DNA from: Trichodesmium erythraeum IMS101 | Lineage (GTDB): Bacteria; Cyanobacteriota; Cyanobacteriia; Cyanobacteriales; Microcoleaceae | Direction: 5' to 3' | Assembly: GCF_000014265.1 (NCBI RefSeq) | Contig: NC_008312.1 | Coordinates: forward strand, 1 to 32,000 | DNA: 32,000 nt | Shown: one piece after another, positions 12,895 to 20,872 of the stretch | How the letters are laid out: the number at the start of each line of letters is the position of its first letter | Position numbering within the stretch: position 1 is the stretch's first letter | Notes under the pieces: model-generated | What the model was told of the DNA's origin: nothing | What the model saw: only the letters and a program-made list of their open reading frames with translations | Database searches by the model: none | Program-made: the position numbers and the translations under genes

Positions 12895-15800
12895 ATGGCA
12901 AATGAATTAAGAGAAGGTGACAAAACTCCTGTTGACTATAGTAGTTTATTAAAACAGATTTTAAATGAATTACCAACAATGAATCCATTTAAAGTATCTA
13001 GTAATAAGAAAATTTTAGAAATAAATATTGATGATATAGCTGCTTGTATTGCTAAGACAAAAGTTGAAAATCCTATCAGTAATACTATATCTGTTCGTTC
13101 TGCCACAGTAAATTTTGCTAGTGAAAAAAGTTTTTCGGAAAAAATTCAAGAAATAAAAGGTTGTCTAGAAACTCATTTCAGTTCGGCTTTACAAGGAGAA
13201 AATTTAGTTTATTTTATTGAAGGTTTAACTACTAATTTAGAATCTTTTCAGGGACAAGCAAATAAGTTAGGTTTGTCTTATCCTTTTAATGAAGAATATA
13301 AAGGACTACAAACAAAAGAATTAATTTTAGATTCTAATAAAAATGGCAGTGATTCTATACTGAGGTTTGCTAAACTAACAATTACAGTAGAGAATACTAA
13401 AAAGTTTATATCTCAGCTAGAAACAGGAATTAAAAATCATATATCTGATTCTTTTGAAACTGATAATCAAGGAGAAATGGAAGGTGCTTTAGATATTTTA
13501 AATAGTCAGATAAACGAAGAATCATCAAATTTTAATTTATTGCAAAAACTGGTGGATCAAGAAACTCTAGGAAAACTGAAAAGAGAAGCAATTATTACCT
13601 ATTTAAAATATATTGAGCAAAATGTTGACAGCAAATATAAAAATACTAAAGGTTTTATTTATCTACAGGATTTAATTCGGCGACTAAAATTAATAGAAGA
13701 ATATCTAGACGAGCAAACTGATGATTTTGAAGTTTACTACGCTGGAGTAACTGTTAATTATAAAGATGTTTTTGCTCGTGGGGAAGCCTTTGATGCTCTC
13801 CCAATTATTCCTATTATTGAAGGCAATTTAGGGGAAAGTAGAGATAAAGAAGTAGGAAAAGTTCAGTTTACATTAGGTTTAAAACTTAAGTTGAATGGCA
13901 AGGTACAAAAAGATAGAGGTAAAACTTCTTTTGAGTATAATTTAGATATTATTAACCCGGAGAATTCTGAGCATAAAGCAAAACTAGCTGATCCGGATAT
14001 TCAAAGTCGAGAAAGTTTTGCTAAGAAGGTATTAATTAGAGTGTTTTTATACTATTTTATATTTGCCTGTGATCCTCCTTCATTAATGAATGATGAACTT
14101 CTTTATAACCCTAGGCTTAAGTTCGAGCAGGTTTTAATTGATTTAAAAAGTAGTAAGCATGATGATGAAAAAAGGAAAATTTTCCGGGGCATAGTCAAAG
14201 GTTTTAGTGAATATCGTGTTCAAGAAAAAGTTAATAGTCTATGTCAATTTTTAATCAATTTTATCAACAAAAAGAAAAGGTTGCCAGTATATCATGAAAA
14301 TCAGGTAATTAGTATTAGTAGAGAAATCCTAAATAAGGACTTAGATAGTATTTCTATAGGAGATTTTTTTCAGGAAGATTGGAGAGAAGGAAAGAAAATT
14401 CTTAAATATATTTTCATTGATAAGCCTGGGGTAAATTCTTATACTCTATGTCAAATACCAGTTATTATCAAAATAGAAGATATTCGATATTTTCAAGGAG
14501 ATAGTAATCCAAAAGAATTCAAGTTTGAATATGACATTCAAGGAATGAAAACATTACCTATGTTTTGGATACCTAATACTAACCCTTGTTTAGATAATTA
14601 TAAAGCTTATTTTGAGAAAGAATACAAACACATATTATTTTATTATGATAATAAACGCTTAAATCAAGATAGACAAAACCAAGAACATTTCAATTCTACA
14701 CAAATATTTCTTTATCGTTTTACTTGGATATTATTGTCTTATCTTTGTTTATATATTCTTCTTGAGGAATGTAGTGAAGAGACGAAGGAATTATTATTTA
14801 TCCCTATGGTTAGACTACATGAGGGAACGCCGGCAAATCCATTTCATACTGAAAAATTTTTAGCTGATCTTTCCAAATTATTATGTCATATATTCAACCA
14901 AAAATATCTATGTAATTCTCAAGGGTTCCGGGTAGAAATGAATAAAAGACCTAAAAATTTTCAGATTAGAAATGGCTTAAACTCTCTATATTCTGTATTA
15001 TCTAAAAAGTTTACCTTAACAGATACTTCTAAATTTTTAAACCTGGAAAAATTAGCAATTATTATTGTATCAAGTCGAGAAAGTGATGCCAAAAAAAATA
15101 ATAAAAATTCTAATGATAGGATCATAACTTTAATAGGAGAAGTTATAGGTATTGAAAAACTCGAAGATGGCAGTGTAAAAATTCAACCATTAATAACTTT
15201 TGATAATAATTATTATCTCAGAAAGATGTACGAAAAGCCACCGATTTTAAATGAAACTGTAAAAGACCTTTATGTTCAGGGATACCAAAATTTTTTATAT
15301 GTTGCTCAAGCAACTTACACTAGTACTTTACATATTACTCAACAAGAACAAGATGAGAAACTATATTTTATGTCGCCTACTATTATTAAAGATATGAAGC
15401 AAGGTCAGAAAAATATTAAAATATATCCAGTATTTTATGATAAATATTATGTACATCCTTTTAAAAGTTTGGATAGCCATTCTTTTTATATCCAAGACAC
15501 TAAACAGTTAATGAATATTTCTGAAGATAGTAGTCAAGAAGCGGTTGTATTTTTCAATCTGTTTAATGGTATTTTAGTGGGAAATAACGAACGATTTTAT
15601 AATGGGGTGATTTCATATTCGACTTTGTTAGGAAAATTTTATCCTGGAGTTATGGATGATGCTGATATTCGAGAAGCTTTAGTTTTAGACTCTCAGCTTA
15701 AAAATGACATTTTACAATATCTGACGTTTTTCCACTTTTCACGATTTGAAAGACAAACCAAAGTTAGTTTAAAGTTAGACCCATACGAAAATATTATTGG

Positions 15801-20100: not shown

Positions 20101-20872
20101 TCCAGAAAAACAAAGTCTTCAGTATGTGTATTCTAGTCTGACACAAATTCTTAAGGAGGCAGTATTTTCTTTGCCTAATTCTAATTCTGATTCTAAAAAT
20201 ATTACTTATCTTTCCCTAATAGGTTTTTTAAAGACTGAACTTCCAACATTATTTAACCGACTCGATAAATTCTTAAATTTTGGTAATATCGAAACTGGTC
20301 ATTTGACTGGTAATTTATTGGTAGTACCTATTTATAACCAAGCATTAGAAGAGACTTATCAAATAGAATTAGAAAATCAAATTAGAAGGTTTGCTAATAA
20401 TGAATTAGTTAATAAAATGTTGTCAATTATGAAAAGTAAAGATTATCCACCTAATATTAAATCTGCAATTGAAAGTCCTTTAGAGTTAATCAAAATTCTT
20501 AAGGGTGACAAGGGTAATATTAATACAACTCAATGGTTTGAACAAAATAGTAATAATTTAGACCAGTATTATGCTGTGCCTTTGTTTGTATTTATCAGTG
20601 GAGAATTAATGAGTAAATATTTTAAGCAGGAACTTGAAGAAGAAGAAGAAGAAACGGCATTTAGAACTCTCTTATCCAAATATATTCACTCCCTTTATCC
20701 CGCATATAATACTCTACCTATTGGTCGGAAATATAAGGAGTTTCCTTTTATTGTTTTTCGCAGCTATAGTTTAAAGGAAATACGAGAAAAAATTTATAGC
20801 GATCGCTATCTTTTAACTTCTAATGAGTTGAATGTTCTTAACTTAATTCTTTCCCGAGAGGAAAGATCATGA
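17126..20872 (+). CDS. Large SF2-helicase-like P-loop NTPase (1248 aa) with unassigned N- and C-terminal regions
   Basis: The motifs occur in helicase order:
- I: FLTGNPGIGKTT (nt 18398-18424)
- Ia: YISPRIQV
- II: IMIDEITGDD (DE at 19010-19015)
- III-like: VIVADAS
- IV-like: QLLVYIQNKKRLKSL
- V: TSSASRGLSF (19631-19660)
- VI: QVIYRARG (19730-19753)

About 420 aa precede this core and about 370 aa follow it, and I can assign neither region. The C-terminal region contains no cysteine and has an acidic run, ELEEEEEET. Confidence 0.88.
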   Translation: MKITDNLGFLFEVGFNIGILADIQHQKYQNNFGDLYVRDLQQLKLPRMVKRMSQNHSIIDPESIKNLEIWSRYFILKGFLGGLIFFREYIKSTKWNLEPKKLKILYYQCCFHGDNSLGTNNKDKLLGIEELLSQFLSVDDLNTNLNRYVNQYLGKKGEFLQADTLILLGDDQQLRIICVDMSIFSVASEKDLVPLNDNKLNNLRKILMTDIKHIHSKSVFSKLRIDTGNTKDFDFVFSSDFKSFFTAFKRKDKETTKLIQAGAYAESFYNFLLKETQIITDKKSVLFNIVGYSDRNISTLCLRPENLNILTTCSEIYKKEDKNKETKVARRKVLDLIKNRAVFSFINGKALTENLKTKKLNFSGDGIARVIHEEKLNDFVNSIDVISDKLAAKLGLKLGLNLRDAHAELIEKALISDNTFVFLTGNPGIGKTTAIANFLKSHLEEGFLFFYISPRIQVNLDLIHKFKSENAQDQELFDDRLFCINTNSIIIQENDNYSTVRYYSNQRQDDFTSKNVRFINYNSQAEPRKQRQRNFHRITVDKIENRKKITAGVLDSVCKGIYAIINDKISNNIVATVSTQSLKITPNGRDTIEHLKTIFKSTYDRKRGVNPDKMYEISQRIKHLFIMIDEITGDDSGVHFLKGINKFLGQYQLTNSEYGFNTKVIVADASIVEQEVIQQHLSQESPEPDKIYFRAAKSQAEALSVQDFQFKNKRAVTINANSYPASSLNITYKVFIQSINFNQYDWKFKEKNQLTKEVDLEILSDIKYFLENYSSSQLLVYIQNKKRLKSLIKNIKESHKNFDEYTDYLEIHASLYDEKRKKIDKYKQDVKIVFMTSSASRGLSFPKAKKILVEIPRFQIEKNLMEVIQVIYRARGQYQENGKKITLDDQEKEIIFYFSDSAIYYPKDNDTSLENYDEERTLSLEESTMNLLDMLLILKLSIMTRIVGAGNLGSKKFLMVPIGGKSISTAGNSFSEKMTNLIRELKNEHNRHPEKQSLQYVYSSLTQILKEAVFSLPNSNSDSKNITYLSLIGFLKTELPTLFNRLDKFLNFGNIETGHLTGNLLVVPIYNQALEETYQIELENQIRRFANNELVNKMLSIMKSKDYPPNIKSAIESPLELIKILKGDKGNINTTQWFEQNSNNLDQYYAVPLFVFISGELMSKYFKQELEEEEEETAFRTLLSKYIHSLYPAYNTLPIGRKYKEFPFIVFRSYSLKEIREKIYSDRYLLTSNELNVLNLILSREERS

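Follow-up and report, generated by a model that had tools for sequence, protein, structure and literature searches.

A conserved gene pair beside dnaN in Trichodesmium erythraeum joins a predicted Argonaute-like protein to an SF2 helicase

Two described systems, DdmDE and ApsAB, eliminate plasmids by means of a helicase-nuclease and an Argonaute-like protein that is itself inactive. In DdmDE, DdmE is a long-C prokaryotic Argonaute (pAgo) with Tyr, Gln and Lys residues in its pocket, and DdmD is the helicase-nuclease. Recruitment of the motor-nuclease by the guide-loaded Argonaute has been shown for DdmDE and proposed for ApsAB. The MID domains of pAgos and of ApsB share a Y-x3-K...Q(G)...K motif, which as Y-x3-K...QG...K is essential in ApsB; its authors state that ApsB does not have PIWI's RNase H fold (PMC11096173). 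Here we analyze two genes, ORF1 and ORF2 (open reading frames 1 and 2), from the first 32,000 nucleotides of contig NC_008312.1 of Trichodesmium erythraeum IMS101 (hereafter, the window), which in outline look like a putative relative of these systems. An initial annotation, made from the sequence alone, had described two co-oriented large genes, and their coordinates and lengths are confirmed:

12895-15912, + strand: ORF1, 1005 aa, predicted Argonaute-like protein
17126-20872, + strand: ORF2, 1248 aa, superfamily 2 (SF2) DExH-type helicase, extended at both termini by conserved regions

ORF1, in which the initial annotation found no assignable feature, has no match in Pfam, NCBIfam, PADLOC or PHROGs models. 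Its predicted structure points to a fold. When the AlphaFold2 model of ORF1 (predicted local distance difference test, pLDDT, 80.5; predicted template modeling score, pTM, 0.79) was searched against the PDB with Foldseek, Argonautes occupied ranks 1-4 and 7, with E-values of 2e-3 to 1e-2 and probabilities of 0.85-0.97. The best match is the short pAgo of SPARTA (8u72_C; E = 2.2e-3, probability 0.97), aligned over 504 columns to a MID-PIWI protein of 452 residues. The top Argonaute matches also include RsAgo (5awh/6d8p), aligned over up to 654 columns with a probability of 0.85-0.91, and the MID-PIWI of QDE-2. Below the Argonautes are RNase H-like proteins of the NurA and TdpB types, and among the lower matches are TdpAB (8wfd_G, probability 0.44), HerA-NurA (7f6d_G) and the NurA-like TM1739. 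A control fold search of viral structures (BFVD) with ORF1 returned nothing below E = 0.2 and only weak RNase H matches. ORF1 is predicted to fold like the MID-PIWI part of Argonautes, albeit with weak matches, and, judged by sequence, founds a family with no detectable link to known Argonautes. Three regions of the protein are discussed below:

14557-14994, + strand: ORF1 residues 555-700, Rossmann-like domain from the secondary structure of the model, read as MID-like
14875-15006, + strand: ORF1 residues 661-704, the most conserved stretch, candidate pocket for the guide 5' end
14995-15909, + strand: ORF1 residues 701-1005, RNase H-like (PIWI-like) domain, from the strand/helix order of the model and the Argonaute, NurA and RNase H matches

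The elements of the Rossmann-like domain follow the order beta-alpha-beta-alpha-beta-alpha-beta (strands, E, and helices, H: E556-560, H565-574, E579-584, H601-624, E634-642, H651-667, E672-679), and the Foldseek matches to Argonautes suggest that this domain is MID-like. The most conserved stretch has the pattern K661...Q676-G677...N693...S697-x-Y699...K704, resembling the motif of pAgo and ApsB MID domains. Among 88 non-redundant family members, which span identities down to 20%, Q676 is conserved in 100%, S697 in 99%, G677 and Y699 in 98% each, N693 in 97%, K/R704 in 90% and K661 in 83%. In the model, Q676-G677 opens strand 4, K661 lies in the helix before it and K/R704 past the next helix. 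The predicted placement of K661, Q676 and K704 topologically matches that of the Argonaute MID K...Q...K pocket, which binds the 5' phosphate of the guide, making the stretch a candidate pocket of this kind. Together, the MID-like and RNase H-like parts comprise 451 residues, the size of a short pAgo. The only polar residues of the RNase H-like domain conserved in at least 90% of the members are D731, H947, E952 and K960. The catalytic DEDX tetrad is not conserved: D731 is the only acid on a strand that reaches this level, and the strand-4 position reads AQAP. With D731 as the only conserved candidate catalytic acid, the PIWI-like domain probably does not slice targets, as is true of the catalytically inactive DdmE, RsAgo and short pAgos.

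The assignment of ORF2 is firmer. The six helicase motifs read in the initial annotation are all in their places, namely motif I (GNPGIGKTT, residue 425), Ia (YISPRIQV, 451), II (DEITGDD, 629), III (ADAS, 667), V (TSSASRGLSF, 836) and VI (QVIYRARG, 869), and they are invariant or nearly so in orthologues down to 27% identity. In Pfam, residues 766-874 score 27.3 bits with Helicase_C (cut-off 23.5), and residues 404-480 match several P-loop families. For the structure we modeled an orthologue, P0189, which is 53% identical and lacks the first 16 residues (pLDDT 67.2, pTM 0.56, with low confidence in the C-terminal domain). The top Foldseek matches of this model are Brr2, Mtr4, HrpA, Prp43, Prp22, DHX37 and MrfA (E = 3e-8 to 1e-5). 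ORF2 is a DExH-type SF2 helicase, closest in this search to Ski2-like and DEAH/RHA helicases and to MrfA. A STAND NTPase was also considered and rejected, as the nSTAND3 match (27.3 bits, cut-off 27.2) spans the P-loop only, covering profile positions 13-74 of 155. The protein can be divided as follows:

17423-18025, + strand: ORF2 residues about 100-300, candidate RecB-like PD-(D/E)xK nuclease, from motifs and topology
18338-19225, + strand: RecA-like domain 1, with motifs I (18398-18424), Ia (18476-18499), II (19010-19030) and III (19124-19135)
19403-19825, + strand: RecA-like domain 2, with motifs V (19631-19660) and VI (19730-19753)
19826-20869, + strand: C-terminal 348 aa, a conserved domain, from its invariant columns

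RecA-like domain 1 contains a variable insertion at about residues 480-600. The extensions on both sides of the core had appeared unassignable. For the N-terminal one, a nuclease can now be proposed tentatively. From Trichodesmium to Bacillus (27% identity), the invariant residues of the N-terminal 400 aa are G157, D163, D180, K217, D252, K253, K257, Q260, Y264 and S267, with the spacings G157-x5-D163, D252-K253 and Q260-x3-Y264. The N-terminal unit of the P0189 model has the order alpha-beta-beta-beta-alpha-beta, in which strand 2 begins at D163, strand 3 finishes at D180 and the QxxxY lies in the helix after strand 3. This topology, combined with D, (D/E)xK and QxxxY, is the layout of RecB/Cas4-type PD-(D/E)xK nucleases, and we hypothesize that the N-terminal domain is RecB-like. 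Scattered single weak Pfam matches of this domain (e.g. RE_SacI, E = 0.034, in one orthologue) were rejected as evidence. The conserved C-terminal 348 aa carry the motifs PIGGKS (961-966) and, at the end, LTSNELNVLNLIL, and their invariant columns show no conserved acid...Lys nuclease signature. As noted initially, the C-terminus is cysteine-free; there is no cysteine after residue 558.

ORF1 and ORF2 form an obligate pair and a self-contained two-gene module. Of the fetched loci, 73 retain the whole 3' end of ORF1 together with 1.5 kb or more of downstream sequence. In 71 of these an ORF2 homologue lies downstream on the same strand, mostly within tens of bases, which supports the two-gene module of the initial annotation; ORF1 stands alone in the other two (L011 and L054). 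The two identity matrices run parallel, from 83% down to 20-27%. Full-length ORF1 orthologues are 40-98% identical, the 98% match being a protein of a Trichodesmium metagenome-assembled genome (MAG), and near-identical copies of both proteins occur in other Trichodesmium assemblies. ORF1 homologues at 40-78% identity are found in Okeania, Dapis, Kamptonema, Microcoleus, Argonema, Tolypothrix, Calothrix, Scytonema, Moorena and others, and ORF2 homologues have the same spread. An exhaustive search with the ORF1 family profile yielded 356 clusters at 50% identity, among which 200 reach E ≤ 1e-30. Nearly all named matches are filamentous cyanobacteria, plus Bacillus and Gottfriedia; cyanobacterial matches with non-filamentous labels are one Xenococcaceae and two MAGs labeled Crocosphaera. 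In the Bacillus cereus group, identity to the pair is 20% and 27% for the two proteins. In five metagenome loci (L030, L037, L040, L043 and L080), another copy of ORF1 comes after the first ORF1-ORF2 pair, which suggests paralogous modules in tandem. A 2028-aa gene call joining an ORF1-like and an ORF2-like part (P0278, on a 6674-bp ENA metagenome contig) was rejected as a true fusion. Its linker and tail resemble out-of-frame translation, the proteins of its lineage are rich in Arg, Ala and Gly (possibly a high-GC lineage), and it is probably a frameshift artefact or a pseudogene.

In Trichodesmium, the two genes are separated by a gap of 1.2 kb (15913-17125), overlooked when the genes were first described as filling the interval. 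It holds decayed tandem duplicates of the gene junction, and not a third gene:

15845-17290, + strand: junction unit of ~245 nt (ORF1 3' end plus ORF2 5' start) in three copies, repeat family D1

The copies at 15845-16089, 16689-16933 and 17046-17290 are 73-75% identical. The last one is the live junction and the first two are decayed, with a pseudo-start, ATGAAGATGACA, located 13 nt 3' of the ORF1 stop. Okeania has four junction copies of younger age (L002, 5700-8100; 87-95% identity, period ~662 nt) and Trichodesmium MAG_R02 has one extra copy, two in all (L001, 12950-13900). This repeated tandem duplication of the ORF1-stop/ORF2-start junction is confined to the Trichodesmium/Okeania clade. 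Elsewhere the genes abut or overlap (4 nt in Microcoleus and Anabaena variabilis plasmid C, 8 nt in Bacillus); thus, a tight ORF1-ORF2 operon is the ancestral state.

From the gene pairing, conservation, helicase identity, predicted Argonaute-like fold and genomic contexts we infer that the pair may be a two-protein, guide-directed defence against foreign DNA, comprising an Argonaute-like protein plus a helicase that is possibly also a nuclease, a reading to which we assign a probability of about 0.5. ORF1 would be a catalytically inactive Argonaute-like protein whose MID-like pocket, comprising K661, Q676-G677, N693, S697, Y699 and K704, takes up a short nucleic-acid guide by its 5' end. Upon pairing of the guide with invading DNA of a plasmid, phage or other mobile element, ORF1 would recruit or activate ORF2. 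The latter would act as an ATP-driven DExH-type SF2 translocase that unwinds the target, and its N-terminal RecB-like domain would probably cut. The idea of a defence system put forward in the initial annotation is in this way partly supported, the defensive role being part of the proposed mechanism.

Several results weigh against this reading. For ORF1, the Foldseek E-values for Argonautes are weak (2e-3) and the TM-scores low (0.17-0.33). Pfam Piwi (PF02171) and pPIWI_RE miss ORF1 and all 30 orthologues scanned, and PDB sequence searches with ORF1 (phmmer and family profile) give no matches. Profile comparison with hhalign yields probabilities below 1% against TtAgo and a TtAgo-family profile, the latter being narrow (a 12-sequence family; the TtAgo homologue search gave 15 close relatives), and 0.07% for the ORF1 family profile against ApsB residues 1-443. 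The spacing between the aromatic residue and the lysine in the proposed pocket is F/Y655-x5-K661, not Y-x3-K. In ORF2, the position of the canonical Lys of (D/E)xK is occupied by Ser182, and Pfam searches with the isolated N-terminal domains of nine orthologues retrieve no nuclease family. A scan of viral contigs yielded no homologue. Finally, on cyanobacterial chromosomes the position of the module is stable within orders and its neighbors are mostly housekeeping genes. Among metagenomic loci, the 107 neighboring ORFs at 15 loci belong mostly to housekeeping families and include two integrases.

The chromosomal contexts follow taxonomy. In the Trichodesmium lineage and a related MAG (L013), the module comes immediately after dnaN and near dnaA; in Tolypothrix, Sphaerospermopsis and Calothrix, the order is fur-purS-purQ-ORF1-ORF2; and in Kamptonema and Microcoleus, it is pheT-YCII-ORF1-ORF2. 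The small YCII-family gene (84-89 aa) of the last two genera is located 12-126 nt upstream of ORF1 on the same strand. Because it is missing from this position in Nostocales, Trichodesmium and Bacillus, it probably does not belong to the system. Mobile contexts are found as well. Six conjugative plasmids of Nostocales carry the pair beside integrases and transposases. In the Bacillus cereus group, three large serine recombinases lie on one side of it and a SIR2_2 gene pair on the other, and in Gottfriedia it is flanked by the gene for a 971-aa RelA_SpoT protein and by a JetD-containing cluster of the Wadjet type. This distribution over plasmids and islands of Bacillota is typical of conflict systems. 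The setting in Bacillota is therefore a defence or mobile island, and in Nostocales there are also the conjugative plasmids, but on cyanobacterial chromosomes the module is mostly not in a defence island.

Other features of the neighborhoods were also recorded. Uma2 is the only family that recurs among the metagenomic neighbors (10 of the 107 ORFs). Uma2 genes, encoding putative restriction endonucleases (PADLOC candidate PDC-S03), flank L028, L053, L056, L059, L078 and others, and occur near the module in L006, L008 and L010. In Calothrix sp. NIES-4071 (L006, 13007-22021), an insert of 9 kb between ORF1 and ORF2 encodes a hybrid histidine kinase and response regulators, together with an SsdA_C/Imm5 toxin-immunity pair and a Gp49/HTH toxin-antitoxin pair. 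In Kamptonema formosum (L004, 22971-23027 and beyond), a gene ~6 kb downstream of the module encodes an 888-aa protein with the domains of the eukaryote-type major vault protein (Vault, Vault_2-4 and MVP_shoulder).

The richness of the two genes in AT and in Asn, Lys and Ile, noted by eye in the initial annotation, is confirmed by measurement. The GC content is 0.28-0.29 in ORF1 and ORF2, against 0.34 in dnaA and 0.40 in ilvD (0.326 in the window overall), and Asn, Lys and Ile make up 25-27% of both proteins compared to 18% in DnaA and IlvD. By contrast, GC at the third codon position is native (0.18 and 0.21 in the two genes, 0.19 in dnaA and 0.23 in ilvD), so that the AT-richness stems from protein composition and not from foreign codon usage. 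The nearby mobile DNA does not indicate foreign origin either. The IS630 fragment between dnaN and ORF1 is a local insertion, given that the related MAG (L013) has the order dnaN-ORF1-ORF2 without IS630. The HIP1 sites (GCGATCGC) reported in ORF2 at 18003 and 20799 are present. Perfect HIP1 octamers number six in the window, compared to 0.02 expected from shuffles; they are at 9120, 18003, 20799, 23632, 27121 and 29350, and one lies within a group II intron region. In agreement with the initial annotation, the module is long-resident in cyanobacteria, as judged from its native third-position GC, the HIP1 sites and the synteny kept within orders. The ratio of non-synonymous to synonymous substitutions (dN/dS) for ORF1 and ORF2 against the orthologues of Trichodesmium MAG_R02 and Okeania is 0.27-0.53 (0.47-0.53 between the two Trichodesmium lineages), showing that both genes are under purifying selection. 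Intact frames of 3.0 and 3.7 kb in DNA of 29% GC cannot be attributed to chance.

Such stability raises the question of whether the pair serves the cell itself. It might be a housekeeping genome-maintenance machine of filamentous cyanobacteria with an Argonaute-like fold, acting in replication, repair, decatenation or on R-loops. Genome-maintenance roles have been proposed for TtAgo and for PIWI-RE/DinG. The fixed positions within orders (after dnaN, after purQ in Nostocales and in the pheT-YCII context), the agreement of chromosomal copies with taxonomy, the native third-position GC and HIP1 sites, and the absence of defence-gene enrichment among the 107 ORFs around metagenomic loci would all fit this explanation, as would the effect of PsPIWI-RE deletion on cell division (PMC10991935). 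We nevertheless consider it unlikely. The pair also resides on conjugative plasmids and in recombinase-flanked or defence islands of Bacillota, it is spread across phyla, tandem duplicated modules and loci with ORF1 alone exist, and the dN/dS of 0.27-0.53 in Trichodesmium is rather relaxed for a core replication factor.

The RNase H-like domain of ORF1 permits another explanation, in which no guide is involved. The domain would be a NurA/TdpB-like nuclease or a DNA clamp, working with ORF2 on DNA ends or modified DNA in the manner of HerA-NurA, TdpAB or Hachiman. NurA and PIWI share the RNase H-like fold, helicase-nuclease pairings are common among defence systems, D731, H947 and E952 are conserved, and the Foldseek list does contain TdpAB, HerA-NurA and TM1739. 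However, the Argonaute matches score better and extend over 450-650 columns that include the Rossmann-like domain preceding the RNase H-like one. A single Asp conserved in at least 90% of the members is too few for a two-metal RNase H-type site, and ORF2 belongs to SF2, not to the HerA/FtsK-type hexameric ATPases. Guide-free action thus seems doubtful.

It is improbable that the pair is a divergent member of a named system, i.e. Hachiman, Druantia III, DISARM, DdmDE, ApsAB or pPIWI-RE. A large partner next to an SF2 helicase, with the partner being Argonaute-like, does recall DdmDE and ApsAB, and ApsAB-like systems have been reported in some cyanobacteria (PMC11096173). Still, PADLOC has no matching family for ORF1 and gives for ORF2 only mad8 (E = 0.005), over the P-loop; on these grounds Hachiman, Druantia and DISARM, to which the initial annotation had already found a poor fit, were rejected. 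Searches of the PDB with the two family profiles gave no matching chain, which would cover DdmD and DdmE if they are deposited. In addition, the helicase does not resemble DinG, a third gene for a restriction endonuclease is missing, and Walker A position and gene order, as well as the genera concerned, set the family apart from the ApsA-like loci of cyanobacteria, as detailed below.

Decay into unexpressed relics in Trichodesmium is very hard to reconcile with frames intact over 3.0 and 3.7 kb, retention of all family-invariant residues, dN/dS below 1 in every comparison and near-identical copies in other Trichodesmium assemblies, even though Trichodesmium genomes are rich in pseudogenes and non-coding DNA, IS630 and nSTAND1 fragments lie nearby, the junction is disrupted by duplications and the comparison of the two Trichodesmium lineages gives a fairly high dN/dS (0.47-0.53).

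The remainder of the window provides the local setting. The flanks named in the initial annotation, IS630 and ArsA/GET3, are present, except that IS630 is reduced to a fragment containing the helix-turn-helix (HTH) part:

27-1397: dnaA
5819-10973: dnaN, split into exons by four group II introns
11838-12341, - strand: IS630-type ORF, HTH part only
21246-22436, - strand: ArsA/GET3
Beyond ArsA/GET3, in this order: DUF2358, nSTAND1 fragment, DUF4912 protein, ilvD

Rfam matches to group II domain 5/6 (5819-5898, 6990-7081, 8996-9074 and 10277-10355) each directly precede a dnaN exon; the exons, located by tblastn with an intact dnaN, are at 5902-5952, 7105-7239, 9072-9380 and 10428-10970. The stretch 5819-10973 contains no ORF of at least 100 aa, i.e. 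no intron-encoded protein. Gene fragments around the module, which are signs of pseudogenization, include the IS630-type transposase cut down to its HTH part, the C-terminal piece of an nSTAND1 NTPase fused to pentapeptide repeats (23799-24329, - strand) and a piece of a DDE_3 transposase (31434-31973, - strand). A promoter/terminator scan of this AT-rich DNA was uninformative (68 sites versus 55.5 expected).

If ORF1 binds guides, it would represent a new and easily missed branch of Argonautes, found by fold only, as DdmE and ApsB were. The rule by which an inactive Argonaute hands its target to a helicase-nuclease would then extend to cyanobacteria and Bacillota. It would also provide a candidate explanation for why filamentous cyanobacteria, among them the ecologically important and genetically intractable Trichodesmium, resist plasmid uptake and genetic manipulation. 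The family, large and well conserved with its 356 clusters at 50% identity, would offer material for mechanistic studies and tool building. Since it resides stably on chromosomes by housekeeping genes, one may ask whether a defence module has gained a cellular role.

Among the known systems, DdmDE of Vibrio cholerae resembles the pair in consisting of two genes found in genomic islands, which encode an Argonaute-type protein without DEDX and an SF2 helicase of ~1200 aa, the PD-(D/E)xK-type domain being only a candidate in ORF2. By analogy, the expected logic would be the same, with a guide-loaded Argonaute recruiting a motor-nuclease. The differences are in architecture. In DdmD, the helicase is N-terminal (K55) and the nuclease C-terminal, whereas in ORF2 the candidate nuclease is N-terminal and Walker A is at 425-433. 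DdmE has about 700 aa, compared to 1005 aa in ORF1, and is absent from the top Foldseek matches of ORF1. Membership in DdmDE was rejected based on the opposite domain order, the lack of PDB sequence matches and the lack of a C-terminal nuclease signature in ORF2.

ApsAB, the antiplasmid system of E. coli ST38, shares with the pair an Argonaute-like protein recognizable by structure prediction only, a K...QG...K motif in the MID-like domain of that protein (ApsB) and a large SF2 helicase (ApsA) with a PD-(D/E)xK motif, again only a candidate in ORF2. Unlike in the pair, where the Argonaute-like gene comes first, apsA precedes apsB. ApsA has 1569 aa and a C-terminal nuclease, and ApsB has 743 aa. 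An RNase H-like domain is predicted in ORF1, in contrast to ApsB, and the aromatic-to-lysine spacing is Y-x3-K in ApsB but F/Y-x5-K in ORF1. The ApsA-like proteins of cyanobacteria have Walker A near residue 45 and are followed by an ApsB-like gene for 700-800 aa, whereas Walker A of ORF2 is at residue 425; the genera and annotations of the ORF1-ORF2 family are absent from the homologue tables of the ApsAB paper (PMC11096173). Membership in ApsAB was rejected because gene and domain order differ, ORF1 has a predicted RNase H-like domain and the profile probability against ApsB 1-443 is only 0.07%.

The pPIWI-RE proteins offer a further parallel. They contain a PIWI domain, have an uncharacterized N-terminal region instead of PAZ/N, are distant from pAgos and are encoded beside, and overlapping with, an SF2 helicase gene. 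Together with DinG and a restriction endonuclease they reportedly form a three-gene system, said to have been described by Burroughs et al. in 2013. Here, the helicase is DExH/Ski2/DEAH-like rather than DinG, no third gene is conserved at the at least 20 ORF1-ORF2 loci examined, and ORF1 conserves D731 only, while PsPIWI-RE keeps its catalytic Asp residues. Membership was rejected given that there is no Pfam match, the helicase is not DinG and a third gene with a restriction-endonuclease fold is missing.

If the N-terminal nuclease reading is right, the closest analogy for ORF2 alone would be Cas3 in Cascade-Cas3, in which a nuclease-then-DExH-helicase protein is recruited by a separate guide carrier; the pair differs in having no HD domain, cas genes or CRISPR array, and a single Argonaute-like recognizer. 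Taken together, these comparisons lead us to propose tentatively, at somewhat less than even odds, that ORF1 and ORF2 represent a third, sequence-unrelated lineage of Argonaute-like guided systems beside DdmDE and ApsAB, with an effector in Cas3-like domain order, chromosomally fixed in most filamentous cyanobacteria, where residence beside dnaN near the replication origin in Trichodesmium may reflect domestication for clearing foreign or aberrant DNA from the chromosome, and still mobile on Nostocales plasmids and in Bacillus islands.

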